Assembly (NCBI GenBank): GCA_937935355.1
Contig: CALGYR010000109.1
Coordinates: 403-64,402, forward strand
From: an uncultured bacterium
Lineage (GTDB): Bacteria; Planctomycetota; SZUA-567; JAKLDR01
Length of the DNA stretch: 64,000 bases
Direction of reading: 5' to 3'
This document shows, in pieces, positions 18,351 through 41,994 of this stretch. How positions within the stretch are numbered: the first letter of the stretch is position 1; every line of letters starts with the position of its first letter. Under the pieces are notes generated by a model. It was not told the origin of the DNA and did not search any database. It was given only the letters and a program-made list of their open reading frames with translations. Position numbers and translations under genes: made by a program.

Positions 18351-19761
18351 ACAAGGTCTCCGAGCCAGCCTCGGTCACGCTGCCGATCAGGTCGGCGCCC
18401 CGGGCGCGCTCGATCCTGACGCGATGGAGCTCGCGCAGGCGCCGCTCCGCTCCGGGCGGCAGCCGGAAGCCGGTCCGCACGTAGCGCCCGGTGTAGCCGG
18501 CCGGCAGTCCGGCCAGCGTGGCGTTCTCGGCCAGCACCTCCTCGACCCGGCCGACGCAGGCGGAGGCGAAGGCCGCCGCGAGCTCCCGACCGAGGGCCCG
18601 GGCCTCGTCGGCTCGCCGGCCGGCCTCGTCGACCGGGACGCGTCCGGGCAACCCGGCGGCCGGCGTGCCCCGGCGCGGCGAGTACCGGAAGACGTGCAGC
18701 CGCGAGAGCCCCGCGCGGCGGCAGACTTCCAGGGTCCGGTCGAAGGCCGCGGCGTCCTCTCCCGGGAAGCCGACCATGACGTCGGTCGAGACCGCCGGCA
18801 GGTCGAGCCGTCCGCGGAGCTGCTCCACGGCGGCGAGGAACTCCTCCGCGCGACAGCGCCGGTTCATGGCCCGGAGCACGCCGTCGTCGCCGCTCTGCAG
18901 CGGCAGGTGGAAGTGCGGGCATACCCGGGGCTCGCCGCCGGCGAGCGCGACCAGGCGCGGCGAGAGCTCCCCGGCTTCGAGCGAGCTGACCCGCACGCGC
19001 GCGCCCGGCGCGGCCGAGAGCGTCGCCTCGACGGCGTCGGCTAGCTCCAGCCGGCCGTCCAGGTCGCGCCCGTACCACCCCAGGTGCGTGCCGCAGAGGA
19101 CGATCTCGCGGCGCCCGTCGGCGGCGAGCCGGGCGGCCTCGGCCGCCACCGCCGCGAGAGGGCGGCTCCGCGGCCGGCCGCGCAGGGCCGGCACGACGCA
19201 GTACGTGCAGCCCGCCGCGCAACCGTCCTGGACCTTCAGGAAGGCCCGCGAGTGGCCGTCGAAGCGGGTGATACCCTCCGTCGAACGCGACGATTCACCG
19301 CGGAGACGCAGAGAGCGCAGAGACGACGCGGAGAACAACGACGACGTTTCGTTGCGGAGGGACATAGTGGCAACTCCACTCCCATCCTCTCCGCGCTCAC
19401 TACGCGCCCTCTGCGTCTCTGCGGTGACTTCCGGCCAGGCCAGTTTCTCCTCCTGATTGAGCGCCAGGTCGGCTCCGCTCCGGCGCAGCGCCTCCTCGCG
19501 GCCCAGGTGGCTTACCAGACAACCGGCCACGACCAGCCGGGCGCCGGGACTGCCGCGCATCAGGAGCCGGGCGGCATCCAGGCTCTTCCTCGCCGCCGGG
19601 GCGGTCACCGCGCAACCGTTGGTCAGGCAGATGTCGGCCACCTCGCCTTCGACCGCCCGGCGGAGCCCAGCCGCCTCCAGGCGCTCGGCGAGGCACTGGC
19701 CCTCGTATTGGTTCACCTTGCAGCCCAGGCTGACTATCCGGAAGGTCTCTGGAGAGGCCAA
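18349..19761 (-). CDS. mtaB: MtaB/MiaB-family radical-SAM methylthiotransferase. It carries an in-frame insert of about 45 aa, encoded by a palindromic element, between the MTTase domain and the radical-SAM domain.
   Basis: N-terminal MTTase domain, CAAGCTYC radical-SAM Cys motif and a TRAM-like C-terminus. The ORF is uninterrupted across the palindromic element at 19296-19426. Confidence 0.85.
   Translation of the reverse strand: MASPETFRIVSLGCKVNQYEGQCLAERLEAAGLRRAVEGEVADICLTNGCAVTAPAARKSLDAARLLMRGSPGARLVVAGCLVSHLGREEALRRSGADLALNQEEKLAWPEVTAETQRARSERGEDGSGVATMSLRNETSSLFSASSLRSLRLRGESSRSTEGITRFDGHSRAFLKVQDGCAAGCTYCVVPALRGRPRSRPLAAVAAEAARLAADGRREIVLCGTHLGWYGRDLDGRLELADAVEATLSAAPGARVRVSSLEAGELSPRLVALAGGEPRVCPHFHLPLQSGDDGVLRAMNRRCRAEEFLAAVEQLRGRLDLPAVSTDVMVGFPGEDAAAFDRTLEVCRRAGLSRLHVFRYSPRRGTPAAGLPGRVPVDEAGRRADEARALGRELAAAFASACVGRVEEVLAENATLAGLPAGYTGRYVRTGFRLPPGAERRLRELHRVRIERARGADLIGSVTEAGSETL
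19296..19426. repeat. Palindromic element lying in frame inside mtaB: CACCGCGGAGACGCAGAGAGCGCAGAGACGACGCGGAG, a loop, then CTCCGCGCTCACTACGCGCCCTCTGCGTCTCTGCGGTG.
   Basis: The 38-nt arms are about 80% reverse-complementary. Same family as the element at 20622-20748. Confidence 0.8.
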
Positions 19762-19767
19762 GGCGCT

Positions 19768-20538
19768 TCAGTCCAGCGCGGGGCGGGGCGCGGCCAGGCT
19801 CAGGCCCTCGCAGAGCAGTCCGGCGGCCAGGGCCACAGCGGCGGTCTCCACGCGAAGGACATTGGTCCCGAGGGTCAGGCGCCGGAGCCGCTCGGCGCCG
19901 GCGGCCGACTCGATGGCGGCAAGGTCGCCGGCGGTAAGCCCGCCCTCCGGCCCGACGAGCGCGAGCACCCGTTCGCCGGCGGGCAGCCCTGCGAGCGCCC
20001 GGCGCGGCGGCTCCCCGCGCCGGAGTTCGAGGACGAGCACCCGCCCGAACTCCCCGGCGCGAGCGGCTATCTCGCCGGCGGCCATCGGCCCGGCCACCTG
20101 CATGAGGCTGGCCTGCCGCGACTGTTTGGCGGCGGCTTCGGCCAGGCGGCGCCAGCGCTCCACCGCGTTCTCCGAGCCGGAGCGCGGGCTGCGGCTCCAC
20201 TGCGCCGGCCAGAGCTCGGCGACGCCCAACTCGGCACACTTCTCGACCAGCCAGGACATGCGCTTGCCCCTGGGCACGGCCACGGCCAGCGTCAGCCGCC
20301 AGCCGGCCGCGACGCCGGCGGGCAGTTCCTCCAGCACCCGGCAGAGGGCCTGTTCGCCCTCGGTCCCGACGAGCTCGGCCCGCCAGGCGCGCCCGCGGCC
20401 GTCGAAGAGCTCCACCCGGTCGCCCGGTGCGGCCCGGCGCGACTGGAGCAGGTGGCGGCTCTCCTTCGCCGGGAGGGCCACCACGTCGCCGGCACCGGCG
20501 GGCGCCGGCTCGGCCAGGAAACGCCCCTGGATGCGCAT
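19768..20538 (-). CDS. rsmE: 16S rRNA (uracil1498-N3)-methyltransferase RsmE.
   Basis: Start MRIQGRF at 20538. RsmE-like PUA N-terminus and SPOUT C-terminus (LVGPEGG ... LGTNVLRVETA). Directly upstream of mtaB. Confidence 0.8.
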   Translation of the reverse strand: MRIQGRFLAEPAPAGAGDVVALPAKESRHLLQSRRAAPGDRVELFDGRGRAWRAELVGTEGEQALCRVLEELPAGVAAGWRLTLAVAVPRGKRMSWLVEKCAELGVAELWPAQWSRSPRSGSENAVERWRRLAEAAAKQSRQASLMQVAGPMAAGEIAARAGEFGRVLVLELRRGEPPRRALAGLPAGERVLALVGPEGGLTAGDLAAIESAAGAERLRRLTLGTNVLRVETAAVALAAGLLCEGLSLAAPRPALD

Positions 20539-20621
20539 GGCCCCGATGGTAAGAGCTCCGGTCCGGCGCGCAACCGAAACCGGCTCGAAGCCGGCCAACG
20601 GCCATCGCCTGAAACGCGGTT

Positions 20622-20748
20622 CACCGCCGAGACGCTGAGCCGCCGAGACAAGATACTGGCCGCGGCAGAGGGCTTTTCTCTGCAAGAGCCGTCTGTCGCG
20701 TCCATAAGCCAGCTCTGCGCCTCCGCGCCTCTGCGGTGCAGGCACCTT
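20622..20748. repeat. Palindromic element of the CACCGC-GAGACGC ... CTCTGCGGTG family.
   Basis: Lies in the divergent intergenic region between rsmE and the histidine kinase. It shares both termini with the mtaB-internal element. Confidence 0.7.
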
Positions 20749-20825
20749 CTGAAACGGCCCTGGAAGCCGCCGGGGGGGCTGTGGATAATTGCCCCTGTCC
20801 GGGTTATATTCAGTGTGGAGGGACG

Positions 20826-23800
20826 CGTGCCGGTCAACCTCGCCAGATTCGCTCCGATGCTGCGGGAGCGCTCGGCGGACATCGTCGGGCGGGTGCTGGC
20901 GCCGTGCCCGGAGGGTCCCATCAGGCCGGACACCCCCCCGGAGGCCCGCGCCTTCTGGGAGATGGCCGGTCCTATGACCGTGACGGCCGTGGCCCAGTTC
21001 ATGGATGACGGGCTGACGCGATCGCGCGAGGAGTCCGGCGCGGGCGTCGCCCGGATGATGTCGGCCGGTGTCACCCTTACCGACTGCCTGGCCGCCAAAT
21101 CCGCATTCTGCAGAGAGATCGGGCGCACGGTCGAGTCCTGCGGCGGCGACGTCACCGCCGTGCTCGCCGCCGTGGAGGCCGCCGACCGGGTCATCGGCTG
21201 GGCCATGGATGCCTTCCTGGCTCACATCGAAAGCAGCCTGAGCGCCGAGCGCTCCGGGCTGCTCACCTCGCTGGAAGCCTTCGATGTCGTCGTCTTCCGG
21301 GCCGACCTGGATTCGCGGCTGCTGGCCGTGAACCGGGCCGGGGCCGCGGTGCTGGGCGCCGCGTCCCCTTCCGAGGTCATCGGGCGGCGCTTCGCCGAGT
21401 TCTACGCCGACGAGGCCGAGCGCGAGCGGCTGAGGGCGCTGCTGGCCGAGAACGGCGAGGTCCGCCAGTTCCGGTTCCGGCTACGCCGACTCGACGGCCA
21501 GGTGCGCTGGTGCGAGACCAACCTCAGGCGCATCGTCGATTCGTCCGGCCGGCCCGTCGGCCTCGAGGGTTTCGGACGGGACATCTCCGGGCTCTTGGAG
21601 ACCGAGGGCGCTCTGAAGCGCACCGAGAGCCGCTACCGCGAGCTCGTCGAGCTGGCCAACAGCATCATCCTGCGCATGGACACCGAGGGCCGCGTCACCT
21701 TCCTCAACGAATTCGGCGAGCGTTTCTTCGGGTTCCGCAAGGACGAGCTCGTCGGGCGCAACGTGATCGGCACCATCGTCCCGGAGACCGAGTCCTCCGG
21801 GCGCGACCTGAAGGCCCTGATCCTGGACATCGGCCGGAACCCCGACCGCTACGCGCTCAACGAAAACGAGAACCTGCGGCGCGACGGCGAGCGCGTCTGG
21901 ATCTCCTGGACCAACAGGGCGATTCGCGACGAGTCCGGGCGCATCACCGAACTGCTGTGCGTGGGCAGCGACTCGACCACGCGCAGGCGCGCCCAGGAGG
22001 AACTGCGCCGCTCCCAGGAGCTCTACCGCGACCTGGTGGAAAACCTCAACGACGCCATCTACACGGTGAACGAAGCCGGAGTCATCACCTACTGCAGCCC
22101 GGTGATCGAACGCATGTCCGGCTATCGTCCGGAGGAGATCGTCGGCCAGCCCTTCTCCCGGTTCGTTCACCCCGACGACATGGAACTGGTCGCCAGGGAA
22201 TTCGGCAAGGGCCTGGCCGGGGACGTCGAGCCCAGCACCTTCCGGATCGTGGCCAAGGACGGCACGGCCCGCTGGGCGCGCACCTCCACCCGGCCGGAGA
22301 TCGTCGACGGACGGGCCGTCGGCCTGCACGGACTGCTCGCCGACGTGACCGCCCTGTTCGAGGCCGAAGAGGCCCGCAAGCGCACCGCGCAACTGCTCGA
22401 CAAGCTGCCGATCTGCGCCTTCGAGATCGGCCAGGACAACCGCATCGCCACGATCAGCGCCGGCGGCCTGCGCATGGTCGGCGCGGCCGAACCGGCCCAG
22501 GTCGTCGGCCGCCCGGTGACCGACTTCTACGCGACGCCTTCGCAGGAGCCGGACCTCCGGGCCCGCGTGGCGGCCGACGAGCGGGGCGCGGTCATGCGCA
22601 TGCAGGTCCGGCGCCTTGACGGCACGACCTTCTGGGCCGAGGGCTTCGCCCGCACCGTGCGCAACGCCGCCGGAGAGGCCATGGGCCGCGAGGGGTTCCT
22701 GCGCGACATATCCGCCCTGGTCGAGGCCGAGCACGCCCTGGAAGCCGAGCGCGGACGCCTGGACCAGGTCGTGCGCTCCGTCGGCGCCGGCCTCTGCCTC
22801 GTCGACCGGGATCTGCGCATAGTCTGGGCCAACGATCTGCTGGCCAGGACCTTCGGGCCGCTAGACAAGATGGCCGGCTGCCTTTGCCACCGGATCTTCG
22901 CCCGCTCTGAGAGCGCCTGCCGGGAATGCCCGGCGCTCAGGACCTTCCAGGACGGCGGACAGCACGTGGCGGACATGCCCGTACCCGCGTCGGACGGAGG
23001 GCAGAGGATCATCCGCCTGACCACCTCGCCGGTCCGGGACGCCGACGGCCGCGTCGTGCAGGTCCTGGAACTGACCCAGGACGTCACCGAGGAGCGCGCC
23101 GCCGAGGGCGAGCGCGCGCGGACCGCCAGCCTGCTCTCCGGCATCCTCAGCTCGGCCGGCGAATACGCCATCGTGGCCACCGACGCCGGAGGCACGATCA
23201 ACTACTTCAGCGAGGGCGCCGAGCGGCTCTTCGGGGTCCGGCAGTCCGGACCGGTCGGCCGGCTGAACGTGGCCGACCTCTGGCCGCCGGAGTCCCGCGC
23301 GGCCCTGGCCGCCGCCCTCGAGGACCTGGGGCGCGGAGGACGCTACGAAGATGACGCCGAACTGCTCCGCGCCCAGGGCCTGACCTTCACCGCCCGGGTC
23401 TCCGGCACCTCGCGCCACGACGGCGACGGGACGCTCGCCGGCTACACCTTCGTGATCCGCGAAGTCACCGAGGAGCGCGCCGCCCAGAAGCTGGTGACGC
23501 TGCTGGCCCACGCCGTGGAGTCGAGCCGCGAGGGCATGGCCCTCACCGACATGTCCGGGGTGGTGACCTACGTCAACCCGGCCATCGCCGCCCTGACCGG
23601 GCGCGAGGCATCCGAACTGCTCGGCAAGGACGTCTCCATCATGTACTCGAAGGAGACCCCCGGCGAGGAGATCCGGGCCATCGCCCGCTCGACGCTGGCC
23701 GGCGGCTGGAGCGGCGAGGTCACCGGGGTGCGCGCCGACGGCTCGACCTACCCGGCGTACATGACCACCAGCCTGGTCCGCGACGAGCACGGCCGGGCGG

Positions 23801-25134
23801 TGGCCATGGTGGGCCTGTGGCGCGACGTCTCCCGGGAGAAGTCGCTGCAGCGGCGGCTCTTCGAGCAGGAGCAGCGCCACCTGGCCGAACTCGAGCGCCA
23901 GGTGCGCGAGCGCACCGCCGAACTGGAGCGCGCCTACCGCGACCTCCAGAAGCTCGACGCCATGAAGGACCGCTTCCTGACCAACGTCAGCCACGAGCTG
24001 CGCACCCCGCTGGTCAGCGGCGTCGGCTACATCGAACTGATCCTCCACGAGGGGCTCGGGCCCATCAACGAGGACATCCGCAAGGGCCTGCGCGTGGCCC
24101 ACCGCAACCTGCTCCGGCTGGTCAACCTCATCGACGACCTGCTGACCTTCACGCGGCTGGGCTCCGGCAAGGAGTCCATGGTGGTCGGCCGCTTCGACCT
24201 CGAGGCCATGATCAACGACTGCCTGCTCGACCTCAAGGTGCGGGCCAGCAAGAAGGCCCTGCACGTGGAGATGGACGTCGAGAAGGGCCTGCCGCCCGTG
24301 GAGGCCGATGAGGAGAACATCCACCGGGTCCTGACCAACCTGCTCTCCAACGCCGAGAAGTTCACCGGCGACGAGGCCGTCATCCGCGTCCAGGCCCGGC
24401 GGGTCTCGGAATCCCGCGTGGAGGTGCGGGTCTCCGACGACGGCGTGGGCATCCCCCCCGAGGAGCTCGCCCAGGTCTTCGAGCGGTTCTACCGCTCGCA
24501 CCGCACCGTCTCGCCGCGCTACGGCGGCACCGGCATCGGGCTCTCGCTCGTCCGCGAGATCCTCGAGGCCCACGGCTGCACGGTCCACGCCGAGAGCCCC
24601 GGGGAGCGTGGCACGATCGTCGTCTTCACCCTGCCGCTGGCGGCGAGCGCGGCACGAGCGACCCGCCGGGCGCCGGCGGCCGCCGTGTCGGAGCCGGAGC
24701 CGGCGCCCTATGGCCGGGGCCGCACCGGGGCCTCCATCCTGGTCATCGACGACGACCCGGACGTCCACGAACTGCTCCGGAGCATCCTGAAGGACAGCGG
24801 CAACCGCCTGGTCTCGGCGCAGAGCGGAGGCGAGGGCCTCGAAGCGGCGTCGTCCGGCGACTTCGACCTGATATTCCTGGACCTGTCCATGGAGGACATG
24901 GACGGGACCGAGGTGCTCGCCCGGCTCAGGCGGGAGGAGCGCAGCCGCCACACGCCGGTCTGCATGCTCACCGCCCGGGCCGACGACGGCACGCTCAAGG
25001 ACCCGCGCGCCTCCGGGGCCCAGGGCGTCCTGGCCAAGCCATTCTCCATAGCCGAGGTCCGCGAGGCCATCGACGAGTTCATGTCCGGAGGGGACTCCGA
25101 CCGGCCCAGCGGCCGGCTGCCGCGGGCGACCTGA
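20826..25134 (+). CDS. Multi-PAS hybrid sensor histidine kinase with a C-terminal receiver domain.
   Basis: GTG start after a GGAGGG RBS. At least 8 PAS-like segments. HisKA (SHELRTPL), HATPase (GTGIGL) and REC (ILVIDDDPD ... DLIFLDLSM ... KP) domains. The 2016-aa track ORF is a spurious upstream extension. Confidence 0.85.
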
Positions 25135-35025: not shown

Positions 35026-35280
35026 ATGAGCATCGTTCTGATCGCCGGGATCGCCTTCGTCGCGGCTTTCACCCAGAACCTGGCCGACGAGAAGACCATG
35101 CTCACGGTCCTGGGCGCGGTGATCCTGGCCTACGCGGTCTACGGACTCGTCGCCCCGCGCCTGCCCCGGATCTTGGGTCTTCTGAGGAGAGGCGCCGTTC
35201 AGCGCCGCGCCGCGCCGGGCGCTACCCGGCAGACCGGCCGCCGCCCTCGAGCCCCGGAACTCCGTCCAGGAAACGCCTGA
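35026..35280 (+). CDS. Possible small 2-TM membrane protein, 84 aa.
   Basis: ORF with two hydrophobic helices. It overlaps the convergent hydrolase 3' end, so it is uncertain. Confidence 0.3.
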   Translation: MSIVLIAGIAFVAAFTQNLADEKTMLTVLGAVILAYAVYGLVAPRLPRILGLLRRGAVQRRAAPGATRQTGRRPRAPELRPGNA

Positions 35281-36115
35281 CGCCATCGGTATAGAGCTCT
35301 CCCGATGTGTGGAACCCGGAGTTGTGGCTGCCGTAAATTTCCAGGAAAGCCTTGGGCCCCGGGGCGGCCTCGAACACCTTCCTGCCGAACTCGATGGGCA
35401 GCATCTCGTCCTCGGTGGAGTGCACCGCCAGCAACGGACACTTCACCCGGCGGACCTGCTCGAGATTGTCGAGCCTCGTACGGGCTATGAGCCTCACCGG
35501 CATCCAGGGATAGGCCCGCGCGCCGGCGTCCGGCACGGAGGTGTGCGCGGACTCGATGATCACCGCCGCCGGTCTCACCTCGCCGGCCAGCCTGGTCGCC
35601 ACCGCGCTGCCCAGCGAGCGCCCCCAGATCACGATGCGGTCCGGGGACTCGCATTTGACCTCGACCAACCAGTCCCAGGCAGTCCGGCCGTCGCTGTAGA
35701 TGCCCGCCTCGGAGGGCCGGCCATCGCTCCGGCCGTAGCCGCGATAGTCGAAGATCAGCACGTTGAGTCCCAGCCTGCGGATCTTCTCGATGGTCAGCAG
35801 CCGGTGCGAGATGTTCCCGGCGTTGCCGTGGCAGAAGAGGGCCGTGCCGCGCGCCGGGCCCTCGGCCGGCACGTACCAGGCCCCGAGCGCACAGCCGTCC
35901 GGCGCGCGCAGGGTCACGTCCTCGAAGGGGATCCCGGCAGAGGAAGGGTCGCCGTGCAGGACCCGGCTCGGGGCGAAGATCAGCCGGTCCTGGAAGACGT
36001 AGAGCAGCCCGACCAGGATCAGGTAGATGCCGGGCGGCACGAGCAGCAGGATCGCGAGCATTTTGCGCCACCGCCTGCGGCCTGGCCGGCCGGGTTCGGG
36101 TTCGGGTTCGTTCAT
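35222..36115 (-). CDS. Alpha/beta-fold hydrolase.
   Basis: GRSLG nucleophile elbow, N-terminal TM helix and HGNAGN motif. Confidence 0.8.
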   Translation of the reverse strand: MNEPEPEPGRPGRRRWRKMLAILLLVPPGIYLILVGLLYVFQDRLIFAPSRVLHGDPSSAGIPFEDVTLRAPDGCALGAWYVPAEGPARGTALFCHGNAGNISHRLLTIEKIRRLGLNVLIFDYRGYGRSDGRPSEAGIYSDGRTAWDWLVEVKCESPDRIVIWGRSLGSAVATRLAGEVRPAAVIIESAHTSVPDAGARAYPWMPVRLIARTRLDNLEQVRRVKCPLLAVHSTEDEMLPIEFGRKVFEAAPGPKAFLEIYGSHNSGFHTSGELYTDGVRRFLDGVPGLEGGGRSAG

Positions 36116-36167: not shown

Positions 36168-37295
36168 CTACCCTCTGAACACCACGGCCGGCTCCAGCCT
36201 GAGCACCCGGACCATGGGCAGCGCGGCCGCGGCGAGGCAGACCAGCACCGCCGCGACGACGGTCGCGACCGCGAAGGCGCCGCTGAGCAGGATCGGCGAG
36301 CCGGAGGCGCGCACCGCCTCGGCCAGCGCCAGGCTGAGCGCCTCGCCGGCCAGTCCTCCGACCAGGGCCACGATCAGCGCCTGGCCACCGACGATGCGCA
36401 GCAGCGCCGCCGCGCCGGCGCCCATGGCTTTCAAGACTCCGAACTCCGCGCGCTGGTCCTGGACCAGGGCGTGCAGCACCTGCCAGACGATGGCCCCGCC
36501 GACCAGGAAGCCGAGCAACGCCGTCAGCAGGAAGGCCGAGCCGACTCCGGTGCCGAAGAGCCAGTAGTTCCTGGTGCGCTCGCCGAACTCCGCCGCGGTC
36601 AGGACGTCGGCCTCGGGCAGCTCGCGCCGGACCGCGTCGCGGAGCGCCTCGGGGGAGGTGCCCGGGGCGGCCTTGACCAGCACGTAGCTGGTCATGCCCG
36701 GCACGGCCCGCGAGGCCTTCTCGGCGTCCTCGTACCGCATGAGCACGTAGGGGTTGGTCGTGAAGCTGCGCATGCCGCTGGTGAAGCCCAGCACCCGGAC
36801 CCGCGCGCCGGTGAGCTCCGCGCAGTCGCCGGGCCCGGTGACTTGCAGACGGCGCCGGTCGGTGCGGTCGATGATCGCCCCGTCGGGAGCGTCGGAGAGG
36901 CCGGCTCCGGCGGGGGAAACCTCCCAGGGAATGCCCAGATGGCCGCCGGGCACGAGCCCGACGACCTCGGTGTTCTCGATGGTGCCCCCGGGGGTCTGCC
37001 AGGCGCCCCAGGCCACCAGCATCTTCTCGGCCCAGAGCGCCCCGGGCGCCGAGCCGGCGCGCTGCGCGTGGGACTCCGGGATGTTGTGGCACATGTCGAA
37101 GTTCGGCGTGCTCGGGGCCATGACCCACACGTCGGCGGGCATGCGCTCGATGAAGACCACCGCGTTGGCCATGAAGCCCGAGAGGATGCCGACCTCCAGG
37201 TTGGCCAGCACCACGGCGAAGATCACGCCGAGCAGCGCGGCGGCGAAGCGCCGCCGGTGGTGGAGAATCGTCCGGCGAGCGAAGGGGACGGCCAC
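36168..37295 (-). CDS. ABC-transporter permease of the FtsX/MacB type.
   Basis: N-terminal TM helix, a roughly 200-aa periplasmic domain and 3 C-terminal TM helices. Confidence 0.8.
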   Translation of the reverse strand: MAVPFARRTILHHRRRFAAALLGVIFAVVLANLEVGILSGFMANAVVFIERMPADVWVMAPSTPNFDMCHNIPESHAQRAGSAPGALWAEKMLVAWGAWQTPGGTIENTEVVGLVPGGHLGIPWEVSPAGAGLSDAPDGAIIDRTDRRRLQVTGPGDCAELTGARVRVLGFTSGMRSFTTNPYVLMRYEDAEKASRAVPGMTSYVLVKAAPGTSPEALRDAVRRELPEADVLTAAEFGERTRNYWLFGTGVGSAFLLTALLGFLVGGAIVWQVLHALVQDQRAEFGVLKAMGAGAAALLRIVGGQALIVALVGGLAGEALSLALAEAVRASGSPILLSGAFAVATVVAAVLVCLAAAALPMVRVLRLEPAVVFRG

Positions 37296-37449
37296 GGGGC
37301 CTCCGGCGGAAGCCCTGCCGGGTCAGTGAACGATCCCCGGGCTCGACGGGAACTCGGCGGAGCGCGCCGCCCTCCCGAGGCTGCGGCGCACCCTGGAGAA
37401 CCATCCGGCTATTCTTCTGGCCATGTCCGTCTCCCTTCAGTTTGTGCGG

Positions 37450-38436
37450 TCAGCAGGCAGCCCCCGCGCCGGCCCGCGCGGTGATTTCGCGCTCGTGCAG
37501 GGCGCCGAGTCCCGGGTACATGCGCATCCCGATCCAGCGGACCAGCCGGTCGCGCAGGGTCACCCGGCCGCGGCGCAGGCAGGTCCTGACGAACTCGCCG
37601 CTGTACGAGTCGAAGTACGAGGCGTGCGGCACGCAGCGGGGGCGGCCGCGCTTGAGCACGATCCGGAGCACCTCCGGCGCGACGATGCCGGCGGCCAGGG
37701 ACATGGCCGAGGCGATGGCCGGGACGCGCTGATTCTCGAAGTCGACGTGCTCGCGGTCCATGACCGCCCCGACCGGCATGCTCCGGGGCGCGACCGCGCC
37801 GCGCAGCATGCCGATGGCCGCCCCCGCCGCCCAGGACCAGGGCATCGGCGGCAGGAGGCCCGCGCCGAAGGCCACCATGCGCTGGGCCCGGGTCATGCCC
37901 GGGACGATGCCGAAGTACTCGTCGAAGCCCATGCCCTGCGGGTCGAAGATCTGCAGCGACGCCCCGTGGCCGATGGGTGCGGAGGTCATGGCGTGGACGC
38001 CCTTCTCCCGGGCCTTCCGGAAGTAGAGGCGCCGCGCGTCGATCTGGAAGAAGTCGATGCCGTCGAGGGCCACGTCCACGTCCCGGAAGAACTCGTCGGC
38101 GTTGTCCTCGCCGAACGGCCGGGGGATGACCCGGATGCGCACCTCCGGGTTGATGGCCCGGACCATCTCGGCCATGACCTCGGCCTTGCCGCGGCCCAGC
38201 GTATGCGCGAAGGCGCCCACCTGGCGCTGGAGGTTGACCGGCTCGAAGCGGTCCGGGTCGGCGATCACGAAGCCGCCCACGCCCATGCGGGCCAGCGTCA
38301 CCAGGTAGTTTCCGCCAACCGCGCCGACGCCGGCGATGCCGACCGTCGCGCCGCGCAGCAGTTCCTGCTCGCGCTCGGCGACCATGCCGATGTTCCGGGA
38401 AGTGGCCTCGGAGTACGACCAGCCCGCCGCGCCCAT
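37450..38436 (-). CDS. ThiF/MoeB-family E1-like adenylyltransferase.
   Basis: GIAGVGAVGG Rossmann motif. The start overlaps the upstream stop (TGATG). Confidence 0.8.
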   Translation of the reverse strand: MGAAGWSYSEATSRNIGMVAEREQELLRGATVGIAGVGAVGGNYLVTLARMGVGGFVIADPDRFEPVNLQRQVGAFAHTLGRGKAEVMAEMVRAINPEVRIRVIPRPFGEDNADEFFRDVDVALDGIDFFQIDARRLYFRKAREKGVHAMTSAPIGHGASLQIFDPQGMGFDEYFGIVPGMTRAQRMVAFGAGLLPPMPWSWAAGAAIGMLRGAVAPRSMPVGAVMDREHVDFENQRVPAIASAMSLAAGIVAPEVLRIVLKRGRPRCVPHASYFDSYSGEFVRTCLRRGRVTLRDRLVRWIGMRMYPGLGALHEREITARAGAGAAC

Positions 38437-39413
38437 CAGAGCACCTCCTCGCGCCCGGCCGGGACCAGGCCGGCCCGTCGGCGCATGGCCTCGAGAGCCG
38501 CGCGCCGCTCCGGACTCTCCCCGGCCAGCAACTCCGGCCGGACGGAGAGGAAGTGGCGCAGCTCGGCCTCGCCCATCGGGCGGAGTTCCCGGGAGAGCTC
38601 GTCCACCGCCCCGGCCTCGCCGCTCTGCGGGATCCACAGGCGGTAGATGGTGCGGTGGCGCTCGGACTCGCCGATCCGGTCGGGGGTGCTCAGCGGTATC
38701 GAGCAGAGCACCGCCGGGGCCCCGCCGACCCGGTCGTAGGCGCGTTCCGGGCCGGCCTCGACGAAGAGCAGCTTGCGCCGATAAAAGCCGGCGTGGCGTG
38801 GATTGACGGTGATCACGAAGTCGGTGGCGCCGCGGATGCGGCGGGCCACGAGGTAGGCGAGGTTGAAGAGGCGAACCAACAACTCCGAGCCGGCGACGGT
38901 TTCCTCGTCGATGCCCAGGGAGACGATCTCGGCCAGGCGCCGGCCGCGCTCCCGCAGGGCGTCGAGCTCCGCGCCGAAGAGTCCGTCGGCCGGCAATCCC
39001 AGCGGCGAGTCGAAGACCACGGTGAGAGCGCCGACGGGGACGACGGCGGTGGAAGGTGGAAGGTGGAGGGTGGAAGACAAAAGGGCGGAGGCCGAACTGT
39101 CGCGATCGGCTCCTTCCACCTTCCACCCTCCACCTTCCACCAGGCGCTTTTCGGCCAGAAGCGTCACCGTGTCGGGCTGGGCGTCATGGATGGACATCCA
39201 CAGCCTCGAGGGATGCGGTCGGGCGTATTCCTTCTCAAGGTACAGGCGGTAGATCAGTCCATAGGCGCTCCGGCGGCTCGCCAGGTCGTTGGCCACGCGG
39301 ATGCGATACGCCGCCGCCGCGCCCACCGACGCGGGTCCCTCATAACCGGTGCGGGCGACATCGGGAGTTCCCTCCAGGGCCTTGAGTCTCTGGCTCAGCT
39401 TCGTGGTCTTCAT
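38436..39413 (-). CDS. FeeM-like GNAT-fold N-acyltransferase (N-acyl amino acid synthase family). It carries an in-frame insert encoded by a palindromic repeat.
   Basis: Start MKTTKL at 39413 with a GGGAGA RBS. N-terminal YRIRVANDL ... AYGLIYRLYLEKEY resembles the long-chain N-acyl amino acid synthase (Acetyltransf_5) family. The ORF continues uninterrupted through the repeat at 39049-39140. Confidence 0.5.
   Translation of the reverse strand: MKTTKLSQRLKALEGTPDVARTGYEGPASVGAAAAYRIRVANDLASRRSAYGLIYRLYLEKEYARPHPSRLWMSIHDAQPDTVTLLAEKRLVEGGGWKVEGADRDSSASALLSSTLHLPPSTAVVPVGALTVVFDSPLGLPADGLFGAELDALRERGRRLAEIVSLGIDEETVAGSELLVRLFNLAYLVARRIRGATDFVITVNPRHAGFYRRKLLFVEAGPERAYDRVGGAPAVLCSIPLSTPDRIGESERHRTIYRLWIPQSGEAGAVDELSRELRPMGEAELRHFLSVRPELLAGESPERRAALEAMRRRAGLVPAGREEVL
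39049..39140. repeat. Near-perfect palindromic element lying in frame inside the N-acyltransferase gene: (GGTGGAAG)x4, a 34-nt loop, then (CTTCCACC)x4.
   Basis: Read directly. Encodes ...VEGGGWKVEGADRDSSASALLSSTLHLPPSTAVV... within the ORF. Confidence 0.85.
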
Positions 39414-39443
39414 GGTGGTCTCCCGTGCCGTCGACTCCCCTAA

Positions 39444-39459
39444 AGCAATCCACATGCCT
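39444..39459 (-). promoter_or_regulatory. Sigma-54 (-24/-12) promoter, aGGCATG-N4-TTGCT, driving the acyltransferase-ThiF-(FtsX) operon.
   Basis: Reverse complement of 39442-39459 is AGGCATGTGGATTGCTTT. GG and GC are spaced 10 nt apart, as in the consensus TGGCACG-N4-TTGCW. The predicted TSS is about 20 nt upstream of ATG 39413. Confidence 0.55.
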
Positions 39460-39594
39460 GCGCCATGCAGCCTTCCGCAGATTCGATCTGGCGATATCAC
39501 GGCGCTTAAGCGTGAGCGCGGGAGTTCCATCTACCCAGACCAAATGAATAATCACCTGGACATCACTTAAACATCACCTATACTGCGCTATGCC

Positions 39595-41994
39595 ATGAGC
39601 GCCAAGCAGACCGACGCAGAGGGTCCCGGCAGGAAGAAGTCCGGCGCGAACCGTCCTGCGCAATTGCATCCGGTGGTGGCCGAGTTCGAGGCCCACCCCA
39701 CCGGATTCATTGACAAGATGGGCGCAAGCCCGCGAGACCCGGCGGCGGCGGCCATTGTCAGGCTGAGCCGCGCGCTGTACGACGAAACCGGCGGCCGAGA
39801 GAAGCTGGCCTCGGTACGGGGCATGGACCTGGCCGGCTGCGACCCGGGGCTGGCCGTCCTGCTGCTGCAGGCCTGGGCCAAGCTGGCCACCCATCTCGAC
39901 CGGCCGGCCGAAGCCGCCACGGTGCTCAAGCGCGCCAGGCTGCTGCTCTCGCCGGACATGCCGGCCGGCCTGCACGCCGTCGTCCGCTTCGCCGAGGCCA
40001 TCCTGGCCTCTCATCGCGGCGACGTGCGGTCATACGGCGGCATGCTCGAGGAGACCCTCGAGCTCCTGCCGGAAAGTTCGCCTCACTACCCCCTCTACCT
40101 CATCAACTATGCGCTGCACCTGGCCCAGATGGGCCGGGCAACGGAAGTGCGCCCCCGACTGGAGCGGTTGCTGGCCGGGAATCCGCGGACCATTCACGTG
40201 ATCGACAGGATCAACTTCATCGACGCCCTGGAGTGCTGCCGGATCGAGGAGGCGGTGCGGCTCCACCCGCTCATCTCCCAGAACGTCCCCAGATTGGTGG
40301 GCTACGACCGGACCTACGAGTTCCTCTTCGACGTACTCCGCGACAAGATGCCCGCGCAAGCCGCCGCTCCATACGACAGCCAGCCGGGCTCCGCGCCGGA
40401 GTGGATCGCGGTGGTCGACCACCTCTTCGCCCGCCGGCCGGCCCGGGCGCTGGAGCTGGCCCGCCGCCTGGCCGCGGCCTCCCCGCGTCAGGCGCTCAGC
40501 GTCACGCGCTTCGACGCTTTCAACCTGATCCGGACCGAGTTGGCCAACGGCCGCGGCGAGGCGGCCAGGCGGCTGGTCGCCATGCGCCGCGAGATCGGCA
40601 ACCCCCACCATCTCGACGATCTCTTCCTGGCTCGCGCCGACCTGCTCGCCGGGGACCGCGCGGCGGCGGCCCGGCGCTTCGCCGCCGTCGACGGCGAGTG
40701 CCGCCGGCTGGGCGCCTCGGGCCGGGTGGATTTCGAGCTCCAGCTGGCCTGCGAGCTCCCGCCCCGCGACCTGGCCTTCCTGCTGTCGGCTGGAGGCGAG
40801 GCGGGGCGCGGCGCCCGGCGCGCCGGATCGTCCACGACCGCGGGCCCGTCTGCCGGGGGCGTCCCCGACGGCGGCCCGGCCGTCGGGATCGACCGCCTGA
40901 TCGGCCCCAGCCCGGCCATGGCCCGGATCCGCGAGTCCCTCGGCCGGCTGGCCGGCTCGGACCTGCCGGTGCTCATCACCGGCGAGACCGGGACCGGCAA
41001 GGAGGTGGTCGCCCGGGCGCTGCACGAGGCCTCGCCCCGGGCGGCGAAGCCCTTCGTGACCGTGAACTGCGGGGCCATTCCCGACTCGCTGCTCGAGTCG
41101 GAGCTCTTCGGCCACGCCCGGGGGGCTTTTACCGGCGCCGACCGCGCGGCGCGGGGGCTCTTCCTCGAGGCCGCCGACGGCGACATCCTGCTCGACGAGA
41201 TCGGCGAGATCTCCCCGCGGCTGCAGGTGGCCCTGCTGCGCGTGCTCGAGAGCGGCGAGGTCCGGCCGGTGGGCGCGCCCCGCGCGCAGCGGATCCGCTG
41301 CCGGGTGCTGGCCAGCACCAACGCGGACCTCTCCGCGGCCGTGGAGAAGGGCCGCTTCCGCCGCGACCTCTTCTACCGGCTCAGGCGGCTGCTCGTGCAC
41401 ATCCCGCCGCTCGGCGAGCGGCGCGAGGACATTGTGCCGCTGGCGCGGCATTTCCTCAACGAGGGCCGCCCCGGCGGCGAGGCCGCCGCCATGGAGCCGG
41501 AGCTCGAGGCGGAGCTCGCCCGTCGCGACTGGCCCGGCAACGCCCGGGAACTGCGCAACGCCATGGAGCGCCTGCGGCTGCTCAACTCCGACGGCCTGCG
41601 CTACTCGCTGGCGAGCTGGCGCCGGTCCGCGGCGGACGAACCGGAGGCGCCGGCCACCGGCCCGGCTGGGGCCGCCGCCCCCGACGCGCCTGCCGGCGGG
41701 ACCGAGGCCGCGGCGGACACGCCCCCCGCATCGGCTCCCGCGCCGGCCGCGGACGTCGCCGGCTTCCTGCGCGAGGGCCGCACCCAGTTCCGGCGGCTCG
41801 ACCGCCTGCGGGAGCTCTTCCGGCGGCACGGCAAGCTCAGCCGCACCGAGGCCGCGCGCATCCTGGGCGTGTCGCTCCGCACCGCCACCATGGACCTGAA
41901 GGTCCTGTGCCGCGAGGGGCTGGTCGAGAAGGTGGCGCCGACCGCCTCGCCGCGGACGCACTACTTCAGGACGAGAGACGGCGCAGGCGGCTGA
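39595..41994 (+). CDS. Sigma-54-dependent transcriptional activator (bacterial enhancer-binding protein) with an N-terminal TPR-like sensory region.
   Basis: AAA+ sigma-54 interaction domain (GETGTGKE, GAFTGA, ESELFGH). Divergent from the sigma-54 promoter operon. Confidence 0.85.
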   Translation: MSAKQTDAEGPGRKKSGANRPAQLHPVVAEFEAHPTGFIDKMGASPRDPAAAAIVRLSRALYDETGGREKLASVRGMDLAGCDPGLAVLLLQAWAKLATHLDRPAEAATVLKRARLLLSPDMPAGLHAVVRFAEAILASHRGDVRSYGGMLEETLELLPESSPHYPLYLINYALHLAQMGRATEVRPRLERLLAGNPRTIHVIDRINFIDALECCRIEEAVRLHPLISQNVPRLVGYDRTYEFLFDVLRDKMPAQAAAPYDSQPGSAPEWIAVVDHLFARRPARALELARRLAAASPRQALSVTRFDAFNLIRTELANGRGEAARRLVAMRREIGNPHHLDDLFLARADLLAGDRAAAARRFAAVDGECRRLGASGRVDFELQLACELPPRDLAFLLSAGGEAGRGARRAGSSTTAGPSAGGVPDGGPAVGIDRLIGPSPAMARIRESLGRLAGSDLPVLITGETGTGKEVVARALHEASPRAAKPFVTVNCGAIPDSLLESELFGHARGAFTGADRAARGLFLEAADGDILLDEIGEISPRLQVALLRVLESGEVRPVGAPRAQRIRCRVLASTNADLSAAVEKGRFRRDLFYRLRRLLVHIPPLGERREDIVPLARHFLNEGRPGGEAAAMEPELEAELARRDWPGNARELRNAMERLRLLNSDGLRYSLASWRRSAADEPEAPATGPAGAAAPDAPAGGTEAAADTPPASAPAPAADVAGFLREGRTQFRRLDRLRELFRRHGKLSRTEAARILGVSLRTATMDLKVLCREGLVEKVAPTASPRTHYFRTRDGAGG

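Follow-up and report, generated by a model that had tools for sequence, protein, structure and literature searches.

A predicted sigma-54-dependent operon for a FeeM-family synthase and a ThiF-like enzyme, with a divergent sigma-54 activator, in a Planctomycetes-group bacterium

Introduction

N-acyl amino acid synthases (NAS) acting together with a ThiF-like cyclase give rise to acyl-oxazolones and to the related N-acyl (dehydro)tyrosines (PMC10404671, PMC12856293, PMC12479983, PMC12596934). The cyclisation achieved by this pair of enzymes has been demonstrated biochemically (PMC10404671, PMC12856293) and has been reviewed (PMC12596934). The pathways considered here for comparison are OxzAB from Pseudoalteromonas rubra, TyzABC, and TrzAS from Mycobacterium tuberculosis, and all the characterised systems of this kind carry a nitroreductase-family flavin desaturase, either fused or adjacent. 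In Planctomycetota, the phylum-level group of the DNA studied here, the stieleriacine (N-acyl dehydrotyrosine) clusters of Stieleria contain several copies of the NAS gene, together with methyltransferase and ThiF tailoring genes (PMC12479983). In these clusters a nitroreductase is present and the regulator is of the DegU type, not a sigma-54 activator; the 2025 stieleriacine paper discusses neither a regulator nor a transporter.

The locus described here lies in a 64 kb stretch of DNA (the window) from a Planctomycetes-group bacterium. On the minus strand, the gene of a FeeM-family synthase is followed by that of a ThiF-like adenylating enzyme and, after a gap, by that of an FtsX permease, while a sigma-54 activator (EBP) is transcribed divergently (Table 1). 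The FeeM and ThiF genes are translationally coupled in the window, and fused forms exist elsewhere. The window has both a sigma-54 activator and an FtsX permease, neither of which belongs to OxzAB, TyzABC or TrzAS. The chemistry of the synthase and the ThiF-like enzyme is already known, and it is the regulator that is the new element of this locus. Related loci used for comparison are designated L001, L003 and so on.

Table 1. Features of the locus, with positions in the window
Feature	Position	Strand	Remarks
Membrane-anchored alpha/beta hydrolase	35222..36115	-	Hydrolase_4, Abhydrolase; 52 nt downstream of permease
DevC/MacB-type FtsX permease, 375 aa	36168..37295	-	MacB_PCD + FtsX; GTG start at 37295
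Gap between ThiF and permease, 154 nt	37296..37449	-	
33-aa ORF in gap	37424..37323	-	strong Shine-Dalgarno sequence before it
ThiF-like adenylating enzyme, 328 aa	37450..38436	-	translationally coupled to synthase; stop at 37450
FeeM-family N-acyl amino acid synthase, 325 aa	38436..39413	-	PF21926; ATG at 39413
Near-perfect palindrome, 94 nt	39048..39141		in frame inside synthase gene
Divergent control region, 181 bp	39414..39594		
Predicted sigma-54 -24/-12 promoter, CAGGCATGTGGATTGCT	39444..39460	-	best PSSM match in window; GC at 39447-39446
Palindrome, CGCTTAAGCG	39503-39512		control region
Three GTGAT(G/T) direct repeats, 11 nt apart	39550-39577		control region
Predicted sigma-70-like promoter of EBP gene, TGGACA-16-TATACT	39557-39584	+	
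Sigma-54 activator (EBP), 799 aa	39595..41994	+	divergent from synthase operon
TPR-like sensor superhelix	~aa 25-412 (nt 39667-40830)	+	within N-terminal 430 aa
AAA+ sigma-54 interaction domain	aa 435-666 (nt 40897-41592)	+	
EBP motifs	aa 463, 510, 534		Walker A, GAFTGA, Walker B
C-terminal winged-HTH-like domain of EBP	~aa 726-790		

Results

The acyltransferase, which an earlier note on this DNA had called FeeM-like, matches the Pfam FeeM model PF21926 with 143 bits (8e-42, cutoff 27), and its sole significant match in the PDB is FeeM (2G0B, 1.4e-8). It has 122 homologs, almost all of them unnamed, from MAGs of Planctomycetota, Verrucomicrobiota, Lentisphaerota and Desulfobacterota. The palindrome inside the synthase gene encodes VEGGGWKVEG...STLHLPPST, with 22-nt arms that are 100% complementary and an RNA minimum free energy of -70 kcal/mol (z -6.7), and it occurs at the same site of the synthase in L051, L054b and L080. 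The element was also found elsewhere in unrelated contexts.

The ThiF-like protein matches PF00899 (1.3e-39, 136 bits) and NCBIfam PRK08223 (301.5 bits, cutoff 266), and also PRK14852, a 989-aa model with both FeeM-like and ThiF regions. It carries GxGxxG at residue 36 and only three cysteines, with no CxxC, and its closest non-E1 relatives in the PDB are TcdA cyclodehydratases. The 1-nt overlap described earlier between the two genes is real, the synthase stop and the ThiF start having one base in common at 38436 (cTGATGg), and it is conserved in L052, in L054a and in L050, a close, 98%-identical counterpart of the window locus. No nitroreductase or flavin desaturase was found among the main ORFs of the window, nor in L052 or L046, and the product of the ThiF-like enzyme is uncertain because every characterised oxazolone pathway has this desaturase.

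A second 1-nt overlap, between the ThiF and permease genes, had been claimed as well. This is wrong, given that the permease start, confirmed through the L052 homolog, lies 154 nt past the ThiF stop. The FtsX/MacB-type permease itself is as described, with matches to MacB_PCD and FtsX. It aligns along the full length of DevC (TIGR01185), the permease of the heterocyst glycolipid exporter, with 105 bits, which is under the cutoff of 290. Homologs of this permease end the operons of L050 and L052. Unlike DevBCA/MacAB, the window (among its main ORFs), L050 and L052 have no ABC ATPase or membrane-fusion protein, while in L046 a complete DevCAB-like set (permease, ABC ATPase and HlyD protein) lies between FeeM and ThiF. 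The gap before the permease gave no Rfam match, its RNA fold is unremarkable (z +1.2), and its 33-aa ORF, which has no conserved counterpart in the corresponding L052 gap, is probably non-coding. The alpha/beta hydrolase gene may close the operon, which is doubtful because it stands beside no related FeeM locus.

The -24/-12 match that had been placed about 30 nt before the acyltransferase ATG is present (AGGCATG-N4-TTGCT), exactly 30 nt upstream and with the canonical GG-to-GC spacing. Scanning both strands of the 64 kb with a weighted matrix gave this element as the single best match (15.2 bits, runner-up 12.7), and as the only strong site in the window that lies in an intergenic region and faces a gene. 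Consensus sites with at most two mismatches number 6 in the window versus 7.5 expected by chance and, therefore, the consensus match alone is not significant. The case for a promoter is much stronger than a single match because the element is conserved in related loci, being found on the sense strand in 18/18 EBP/FeeM intergenic regions (drawn from at least nine assemblies) with 8.6-16.4 bits, always on the operon strand. The antisense score was below the sense score in every one of these regions (Wilcoxon p=3.8e-6; Fisher-combined shuffle p 2e-16), and their consensus is tGGCaY-N6-TTGCT. Across the nine regions in which it was measured, the distance from the element to the first start codon is 25-38 nt, with one at 106 nt. 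FeeM loci without such an EBP have promoter scores like those of the controls. On the operon strand, no sigma-70-like promoter was predicted. The control of this operon by sigma-54 and the EBP, as first proposed, is supported by this conservation. The direct repeats of the control region may serve as binding sites; no motif common to the control regions across loci was established.

The divergent sigma-54 activator with a TPR-like N-terminus was also borne out, the intergenic region being 181 bp instead of the 180 bp given before. It matches Sigma54_activat (3e-62), and the presence of GAFTGA and of both Walker motifs indicates that it is competent; it has no receiver domain. The sensor domain gave a confident predicted model, a TPR-like superhelix of a rare type, with the ligand- and peptide-sensing domains of MalT, NprR, Rap and AimR as nearest structural neighbours. 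As modelled, the superhelix resembles the MalT sensor and the RRNPP peptide receptors most closely, with a sequence identity of 6-12% and no Pfam family in common; in the window EBP, the sensor is N-terminal and the output is an AAA+ sigma-54 activator. Of the whole protein, the N-domain evolves fastest. Distances among FeeM proteins correlate with those of the sensor domain (rho 0.47) no better than with those of the AAA+ domain (0.61), which shows co-inheritance and not co-adaptation.

Starting from FeeM, at least 12 loci with a divergent EBP were found, and starting from the EBP, FeeM stands beside it in three of six. One of the three is L052, which has the same FeeM-ThiF-(methyltransferase)-FtsX operon with an EBP of only 45% identity. 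The pair recurs in uncultured relatives, and tandem arrays of EBP/FeeM pairs occur, with three in L003 and two in L054. The tailoring genes of the EBP-linked operons vary between loci; methyltransferases lie beside FeeM in L001, L003, L015, L052 and L054. The regulator and synthase pair is a conserved and repeatedly duplicated module, a point that the earlier account had missed. The other three EBP-family members adjoin giant S8/C25 proteases or beta-propeller genes (L055-L057) and, therefore, this sensor family is not intrinsically tied to N-acyl amino acids. The pairing and the tandem arrays suggest a synthase/receptor circuit, without proving it because of these three relatives that control unrelated genes.

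Discussion

On balance, we favour the view that this locus is a biosynthetic operon dependent on sigma-54 and served by an activator of its own, and that synthesis, ThiF chemistry and export proceed as follows. The EBP would be made from its own sigma-70-type promoter, and its N-terminal superhelix would hold the AAA+ domain in check, to be released by the binding of a ligand or partner. The active oligomer would then remodel sigma-54 RNA polymerase at the -24/-12 element in front of the synthase gene. The FeeM-type synthase would N-acylate an amino acid with a fatty acyl group taken from acyl-ACP or acyl-CoA, and the coupled ThiF-like enzyme would adenylate the free carboxylate of the resulting N-acyl amino acid. 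Ring closure to a 5(4H)-oxazolone may follow, by analogy with TyzB, OxzB and TrzS, the ThiF-like protein being likened to TyzB and OxzB through the gene pairing. With the flavin desaturase absent, a saturated, reactive azlactone would be formed; the adenylate could instead be handed to another nucleophile. The DevC-like permease, with an ATPase encoded elsewhere, would take the lipid out of the inner membrane. The product is probably an exported fatty-acyl amino acid lipid, ring-closed or activated. The small make-and-export pathway suggested earlier stands insofar as it concerns an N-acyl amino-acid-derived lipid and a lipid-type exporter component, while the pairing of acyltransferase and E1-like enzyme is no open puzzle, since it follows the published acyl-oxazolone route.

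The most attractive version of this mechanism, though not a demonstrated one, is that the sensor binds the product of the operon in a LuxI/LuxR-like positive-feedback loop. The NAS TyzA and OxzA have been compared with the AHL synthase BjaI (PMC10404671). As with LuxI/LuxR, the gene for a synthase of the AHL-synthase/FeeM structural class adjoins that of its transcriptional regulator, one genome can hold several paralogous pairs, and the promoter in front of the synthase would be activated by the regulator next to it. The window regulator differs in that it joins a TPR-like sensor to a sigma-54 AAA+ activator and is not a LuxR-type autoinducer-binding protein, and both ligand and feedback are putative.

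There is a smaller but still substantial chance that the EBP is a cluster-situated pathway regulator with no signalling loop, the TPR domain responding to an unrelated input, be it the state of nutrients, envelope or redox or a partner protein, and the product being an envelope lipid, surfactant or antibiotic instead of an autoinducer. MalT-like (LAL) regulators, which share this sensor fold, commonly act as activators specific to one pathway, DevC-type exporters serve envelope glycolipid transport, and the EBPs divergent from the giant proteases and a beta-propeller protein point in the same direction. This would also be in line with the effect of N-acyl tyrosines of Planctomycetota on other species in biofilms (PMC7293339). 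Nonetheless, tandem pairs whose sensors diverge and whose tailoring genes differ are a pattern more typical of cases where signals and receptors diversify than of those where one bulk lipid is made, and no kinase, partner protein or other input component is conserved beside the pairs.

Among the components of PEP-CTERM/exosortase systems are a TPR protein and a response regulator of the sigma-54 type, and the NAS associated with them, with PrsK/PrsR/PrsT, resembles the window locus in being linked to a sigma-54 activator and a TPR protein. Elsewhere in bacteria, a link between NAS genes and PEP-CTERM/exosortase loci has been described (Craig et al. 2011, cited in PMC7293339), and in two Desulfobacterota loci (L010, L011) the gene immediately upstream of FeeM encodes a sigma-54 regulator with a receiver domain. 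A synthase of the NasY/TIGR03694 group under PrsK/PrsR sigma-54 control, with the exosortase outside the window, is nonetheless improbable, and the link drawn in the earlier note is not supported: the synthase gave no match to the exosortase-associated acyltransferase model TIGR03694 even at E<=10, and the EBP, with TPR and AAA+ in one polypeptide and no receiver domain or kinase, falls far short of the PEP_resp_reg cutoff (224 bits, cutoff 503). As that note had said, no exosortase is seen among the main ORFs of the window, nor is PEP-CTERM, and the flanks of the operon in the window, L001, L003 and L052-L054 are free of exosortase, PEP-CTERM, kinase and EPS genes. It is quite unlikely that the -24/-12 match arose by chance and that transcription of the operon starts at a sigma-70 or ECF promoter. 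The consensus sites without enrichment in the window and the ECF sigma/FecR regulators found instead at some FeeM-ThiF loci (L022) would agree with this, but not the top-scoring site whose position, strand and sequence are kept in 18/18 EBP-bearing loci, nor an operon strand devoid of a predicted sigma-70-like promoter. Least probable is a microcin-C-like pathway in which the 33-aa gap peptide would be adenylated at its C-terminus by the ThiF-like enzyme, modified or detoxified by the GNAT-fold protein, and exported through the permease. The Shine-Dalgarno sequence, the presence of MccB among the PDB relatives of the ThiF-like protein (2e-7) and a sensor that resembles peptide receptors would fit. 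Against it, the ORF is missing in L052, one of its two substitutions between the window and L050 is non-synonymous, the ThiF-like protein starts at the adenylation domain with no N-terminal peptide-clamp domain, many loci with coupled FeeM and ThiF genes have no such ORF, and the acyltransferase is a clear FeeM-family NAS.

Within the favoured reading of a sigma-54-dependent biosynthetic operon with its own activator, the recurrent pair of regulator and synthase could be an undescribed signalling circuit.

Gene organization of the locus

An operon of acyltransferase, ThiF-like and FtsX-type genes, with a sigma-54 activator transcribed divergently from it, was described in an earlier note on this DNA, and as a whole this observation is real. 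Genuine genes were discriminated from spurious open reading frames by the G+C content at the third codon position, in a window with an overall G+C content of approximately 70%. The stop codon of the synthase gene and the start codon of the ThiF gene have one base in common. The second 1-nt overlap that had been described, between the ThiF and permease genes, is wrong, as these genes are separated by a gap, and the GTG start of the permease is backed by its homolog in L052, a related locus with a FeeM-ThiF-methyltransferase-FtsX operon and an enhancer-binding protein (EBP) 45% identical to that of the window. Inside this gap, a strong Shine-Dalgarno sequence precedes a 33-aa ORF (MARRIAGWFSRVRRSLGRAARSAEFPSSPGIVH). 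The ORF was rejected as a precursor peptide given that the equivalent gap of L052 has no conserved ORF, and that of L050, a locus 98% identical to the window, is too close to inform. An Rfam scan and RNA folding of the gap gave no match and no special fold. The membrane-anchored hydrolase encoded beyond the permease was also considered as a member of the operon but is doubtful as such, since it is conserved in no related locus.

Elsewhere in the window, genes for polysaccharide degradation are abundant (GH123, PcRGLX-like, GH130, heparinase II/III-like and sulfatase), and NiFe-hydrogenase and Fe-S genes are also present, as is a hybrid histidine kinase of 2029 aa, which contains seven or more PAS domains. 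The gene content fits an anaerobic glycan-degrading bacterium of the PVC group (Planctomycetota, Verrucomicrobiota, Lentisphaerota).

Coordinates of the features discussed in the window and in related loci (L0xx) gathered through FeeM or EBP homologs
Feature	Sequence	Position	Strand	Remarks
EBP, 799 aa	window	39595..41994	plus	181 bp from synthase ATG
GTGAT(G/T) direct repeats, three	window	39550-39577		11 nt apart; overlap predicted sigma-70-like EBP promoter
Perfect palindrome CGCTTAAGCG	window	39503-39512		about 45 nt upstream of -24 element
Predicted sigma-54 element CAGGCATGTGGATTGCT	window	39460..39444	minus	30 nt 5' of synthase ATG
In-frame palindrome, 94 nt	window	39048-39141		in synthase gene
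ThiF-like enzyme, 328 aa	window	38436..37450	minus	
ThiF-permease gap, 154 nt	window	37296..37449	minus side	
33-aa ORF	window	37323-37424	minus	inside ThiF-permease gap
FtsX/MacB-type permease, 375 aa	window	37295..36168	minus	GTG start
Membrane-anchored alpha/beta hydrolase	window	36115..35222	minus	52 nt beyond permease
Hybrid histidine kinase	window	19045-25134		
Palindrome at equal site of FeeM homolog	L051	1219-1282		
Palindrome at equal site of FeeM homolog	L054 (L054b)	4732-4790		
Palindrome at equal site of FeeM homolog	L080	near 1078		
Small membrane protein, about 100 aa	L051	564-908		opens FeeM operon
Small membrane protein, about 100 aa	L053	5521-5820		opens FeeM operon
Long frame, radical SAM plus FeeM	L012	5181-8828		divergent from EBP
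Long frame, radical SAM plus FeeM	L019	1516-4263		divergent from EBP
Long frame, radical SAM plus FeeM	L021	5946-8915		divergent from EBP
ThiF-FeeM after ECF sigma and FecR-like genes	L022	1107-11642		Planctomycetota MAG CAYMFW01
EBPs on either side of a FeeM gene, each about 750 aa	L009	3910-6201 and 9122-11374		

Predicted sigma-54 promoter and control region

The predicted sigma-54 element upstream of the synthase gene, CAGGCATGTGGATTGCT, carries the GG and GC doublets at the exact -24/-12 spacing, with the flanking consensus present. It is the top site of both strands of the 64 kb when scored with a weighted matrix (15.2 bits versus 12.7 for the runner-up), which represents the published consensus and gives absolute bit scores that are approximate. 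Counting of mismatches to the consensus yielded 6 sites in the window versus 7.5 expected, which is not significant alone; it is the weighted score and the conservation that make the promoter significant.

Comparison between related loci was decisive. A -24/-12 element is found on the operon strand in all 18 EBP/FeeM intergenic regions, with scores of 8.6-16.4 bits. Identity at the FeeM level is 31-58% for these regions, which represent at least nine assemblies, and the loci were gathered both from the FeeM side (genome and metagenome collections) and from the EBP side. The antisense strand scored lower in each of the 18 regions (Wilcoxon p=3.8e-6; Fisher-combined shuffle p ~2e-16), and the consensus across them is tGGCaY-N6-TTGCT. 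The distance to the first start codon, in the nine regions for which it was measured, is 25-38 nt with one exception of 106 nt. At FeeM loci without such an EBP, of which L022 is one, the promoter scores are at the level of random controls. The -24/-12 promoter that had been proposed is thus upheld by its canonical spacing, by its rank as best site in the 64 kb and by its conservation in 18 of 18 regions, and the predicted control of the operon by sigma-54 is well supported.

Between the two divergent genes, the GTGAT(G/T) repeats and the palindrome CGCTTAAGCG are candidate activator or IHF-type sites. Palindromes similar to the latter, GCTTAA(A)GC, were seen by eye in the related loci L001 and L052, and inspection by eye across the loci established no shared upstream activator-binding motif.

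The divergent regulator

The EBP matches the sigma-54 activation domain PF00158 with 209.6 bits and has the expected motifs of this class, namely Walker A (GETGTGK, aa 463), GAFTGA (510) and Walker B (DEIGE, 534). Its C-terminus gives only weak, sub-threshold winged-HTH matches (HTH_20, 22.9 bits versus a cutoff of 27). A search with the full-length protein retrieved 39 homologs of 700-850 aa, from MAGs of Planctomycetota, Verrucomicrobiota and Lentisphaerota, beyond which the scores fall sharply to those of generic NtrC-type proteins. Neither the EBP nor any of these 39 full-length homologs contains a Fis-type HTH_8 or a receiver, GAF or PAS domain.

The N-terminal domain has no Pfam match, and a word-indexed protein search with it returned nothing, so exhaustive HMMER and the full-length query were used instead. 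With the N-terminal 430 residues, exhaustive HMMER retrieved just 201 clusters out of 1.84 billion representatives, nearly all of 700-830 aa with the sensor domain at the N-terminus. The AlphaFold2 model of this domain, obtained from a 21-sequence alignment, is a confident all-helical superhelix (pLDDT 87, pTM 0.84), and the earlier description of this N-terminus as TPR-like was therefore correct. The fold is similar to the superhelix of RRNPP/MalT-type sensors; homology to these sensors is not detected by sequence, with an identity of 6-12%. The modeled structure comes closest to sensors whose ligand is a small inducer or a signaling peptide. Arg313, Arg347 and Arg377 are conserved in the N-terminal domain. 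No part of the EBP diverges faster than this domain, for which the mean pairwise distance is 0.72 versus 0.40 for the AAA+ domain. A literature search found no paper linking NAS (N-acyl amino acid synthases) or FeeM to sigma-54 or to enhancer-binding proteins, and a regulator/synthase module whose sigma-54 activator has a TPR sensor seems not to have been described before.

Synthase, ThiF-like enzyme and permease

That the 325-aa protein is a FeeM-like acyltransferase, as had been claimed, is confirmed by its match to the Pfam profile PF21926 (FeeM), which scores 143.1 bits (cutoff 27; E 8e-42). It also matches the solved FeeM structure 2G0B (E 1.4e-8), and its invariant Glu162 aligns with the Glu of KLAEVV in FeeM, a conserved acidic residue of the LAE(I/V)V strand with a catalytic role. 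From these matches the protein is assigned to the FeeM-family N-acyl amino acid synthases, with acylation of an amino acid, using acyl-ACP or acyl-CoA as donor, as the predicted reaction. Individual MAGs contain seven or eight FeeM paralogs.

The interpretation given with the original observation is partly right; it is supported for sigma-54 control and for a NAS-ThiF pathway, and not supported for a link to an exosortase/PEP-CTERM system, for which there is no family HMM match. The exosortase-associated acyltransferase model TIGR03694 gave no match to the synthase at E<=0.01 or at E<=10, and the sole NCBIfam match of this protein is PRK14852. The EBP scores 223.9 bits against TIGR02915, the PEP-CTERM response regulator, for which the cutoff is 502.6, and has no Response_reg domain. 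No exosortase, PEP-CTERM protein, or receiver-domain sigma-54 regulator with its kinase was found in the 64-kb window, nor were exosortase-system genes found in the related loci. On the evidence of the family HMMs, the 64-kb window and the related loci, the locus is not a member of a PEP-CTERM system (TIGR03694, PrsK/PrsR/PrsT). In the Desulfobacterota relatives L010 and L011 a receiver-type sigma-54 regulator lies upstream of FeeM, and sigma-54-controlled NAS genes appear to be a wider theme.

The ThiF-like enzyme matches PF00899 with 136 bits, has its nucleotide-binding loop (GVGAVG, a GxGxxG motif) at aa 36, and scores 301.5 bits against PRK08223, over the cutoff of 266. It also matches PRK14852, a fusion model that spans FeeM-like and ThiF regions, and weakly the Rv1355c family model (48.8 bits). 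Zinc-binding CxxC pairs are absent, and the protein contains just three cysteines. Among proteins of known structure other than E1 enzymes, the TcdA cyclodehydratases are closest to it in sequence. These features fit a predicted adenylating cyclase acting on a small molecule. The start/stop overlap of FeeM and ThiF recurs in L050, L052 and L054a, and ThiF genes lie near FeeM in L022, L043, L046, L047 and L048; the related ThiF ORFs are all stand-alone, with 295-365 aa.

The pairing of NAS with ThiF-like enzymes is already published and is explained in outline by recent literature. OxzAB of Pseudoalteromonas and TyzABC and TrzAS of M. tuberculosis lead to acyl-oxazolones by a route that begins with acylation of Tyr, Phe or Trp by the NAS. 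The carboxylate is then adenylated and the ring closed by the ThiF homolog, while desaturation is the task of a flavin oxidase from the nitroreductase family (PMC10404671, PMC12856293, PMC12596934). The stieleriacine clusters of planctomycetes likewise consist of NAS, methyltransferase, ThiF and nitroreductase (PMC12479983). Unlike these systems with their partner desaturase, the 64-kb window, L052 and L046 contain no flavin desaturase of the nitroreductase family, fused or adjacent. Anaerobiosis could be the reason why an O2-dependent desaturase is missing. With no desaturase present, the product of the ThiF enzyme is uncertain. By analogy it could be a saturated azlactone, the intermediate observed for TrzS when deprived of oxygen (PMC12856293), or an activated acyl-amino acid that is handed to another acceptor.

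The permease has the domain pair of the DevC/MacB-type (type VII ABC) exporters, with PF12704 (MacB periplasmic core) at 39.8 bits and PF02687 (FtsX) at 51.3 bits. DevC is the permease of a glycolipid exporter, and the window protein aligns along its full length with 105 bits, which is under the devC equivalog cutoff of 290. Unlike in such exporters, the cognate ABC ATPase and membrane-fusion protein are absent from the 64-kb window, L050 and L052, whereas L046 has a complete set of permease, ATPase and HlyD genes between FeeM and ThiF. Export of a lipid by this permease is a reasonable inference, and its role is putative.

The module in related loci

Counted from the FeeM side, a divergent EBP of the window type is present at at least 12 loci, with three consecutive EBP/FeeM pairs in L003 and two in L054. 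The content of the operons varies from FeeM alone to methyltransferase with FeeM, FeeM-ThiF, and the FeeM-ThiF-methyltransferase-FtsX arrangement of L052, while in L053 a DUF2892-like membrane protein is encoded with FeeM and an epimerase. In L012, L019 and L021 FeeM is joined to B12/radical-SAM regions in long frames, with (B12-binding) radical SAM followed by a C-terminal FeeM region; these are divergent from members of the EBP family, have a -24/-12 element, and represent either fused genes or separate genes packed tightly in one frame. Some FeeM operons open with a conserved small membrane protein (as in L051 and L053) that matches YgaP-like_TM/DUF2892 weakly, and its gene probably fills the 320-360 nt that separate FeeM from the promoter in L004, L013 and L034.

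Other regulatory arrangements were also observed. In L022 the ThiF-FeeM genes come after those for an ECF sigma factor and an anti-sigma protein that is FecR-like. Two more FecR-like genes each precede a further ThiF paralog, so that 11 kb hold three copies of ThiF, and the same enzymes are here regulated in another way. The two EBPs of L009 have weak TPR Pfam matches in a 420-aa N-terminal domain and remote similarity to the window sensor, which suggests a wider set of NAS-associated TPR-EBPs beyond the window family.

Approached from the EBP side, three of the six family members looked up are away from FeeM (L055, L056 and L057). Those of L055 and L057 are divergent from coiled-coil proteins and giant S8/C25 proteases (1776 and 3269 aa), and that of L056 from a beta-propeller protein. 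Good -24/-12 elements are present at two of these three loci, the one in L056 being very strong (TTGGCATAATAACTGCT, 18 bits). The sensor family is, therefore, broader than the control of NAS genes.

A palindrome within the synthase gene

Spurious matches to microRNA precursors on both strands (39044-39146), obtained in a permissive Rfam scan, led to a near-perfect palindrome that lies in frame in the synthase gene. Complementarity of the 22-nt arms is 100%, and folding of the RNA gives -70 kcal/mol (z -6.7). It is built of GGTGGA(A/G)G units and encodes VEGGGWKVEG...STLHLPPST. In the alignment this insertion is missing from most FeeM homologs, while members of the closest subclade carry it at an identical site. 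The DNA of the arms is nearly identical in L051, L054b and L080, although the proteins are just ~55% identical. A metagenome scan with a 17-nt arm gave at least 120 matches. Among the matches listed, 18 are full palindromes, 17 of which are outside FeeM genes, each on a different metagenome contig. A clear intergenic position applies to several of them, and one or more lie in frame within another long ORF. The palindrome may thus be a dispersed repeat element able to persist, or be tolerated, in frame, and is reminiscent of the Rickettsia palindromic elements.

Possible role in signaling

We know of no canonical quorum sensing in bacteria of the Planctomycetes group. Transcription of the NAS-ThiF-permease lipid operon from the sigma-54 promoter under the gating of the EBP is, in our judgment, probable. 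A further and tentative proposal is that the PVC group has a previously unrecognized class of cell-cell signaling modules. A FeeM-type synthase with swappable tailoring enzymes (ThiF cyclase, methyltransferase, radical SAM, epimerase) would produce a diffusible N-acyl amino acid or acyl-oxazolone, and the TPR-like, RRNPP/MalT-like sensor fused to the sigma-54 AAA+ activator would bind this product directly. The product-bound activator would then switch on the synthase operon at the -24/-12 promoter. Such a feedback loop, in which the sensor binds the product of its own operon, is possible and on balance doubtful.

The arrangement follows the pattern expected of synthase/receptor signaling, because the synthase adjoins the regulator, the promoter to be activated is that of the synthase, and the pairs are duplicated with diverging sensors and tailoring. 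FeeM-type NAS and AHL synthases belong to a common fold class (PMC10404671), and the module would be an analogue of LuxI/LuxR made from entirely different regulatory parts and diversified by duplication of the pairs. A cluster-situated activator that senses something else accounts for most of the data equally well, and the occurrence of half of the EBPs looked up away from FeeM is in line with it. In the comparisons of FeeM with the EBP domains, co-inheritance is all that emerges from the mirror-tree distance correlations and the NJ trees, which are star-like and do not cleanly separate the operon types.

The physiological role of these lipids is openly called unresolved in the literature (PMC12856293, PMC7293339). 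The locus and its relatives offer two features that are missing from the characterized systems, a conserved dedicated regulator with a sensor resembling a ligand receptor, and a simple promoter that is portable to a reporter host, where the signaling hypothesis is directly testable. Should the product not be a ligand of the sensor, the locus still extends NAS-ThiF chemistry to a desaturase-free and possibly anaerobic setting, and the product made there, whether saturated azlactone or activated acyl-amino acid, would represent chemistry new to biology. If the sensor does bind the product, these lipids would be established as autoinducers, giving the bacteria of the Planctomycetes group a defined signaling system and the sigma-54 activators a new class of input domain.
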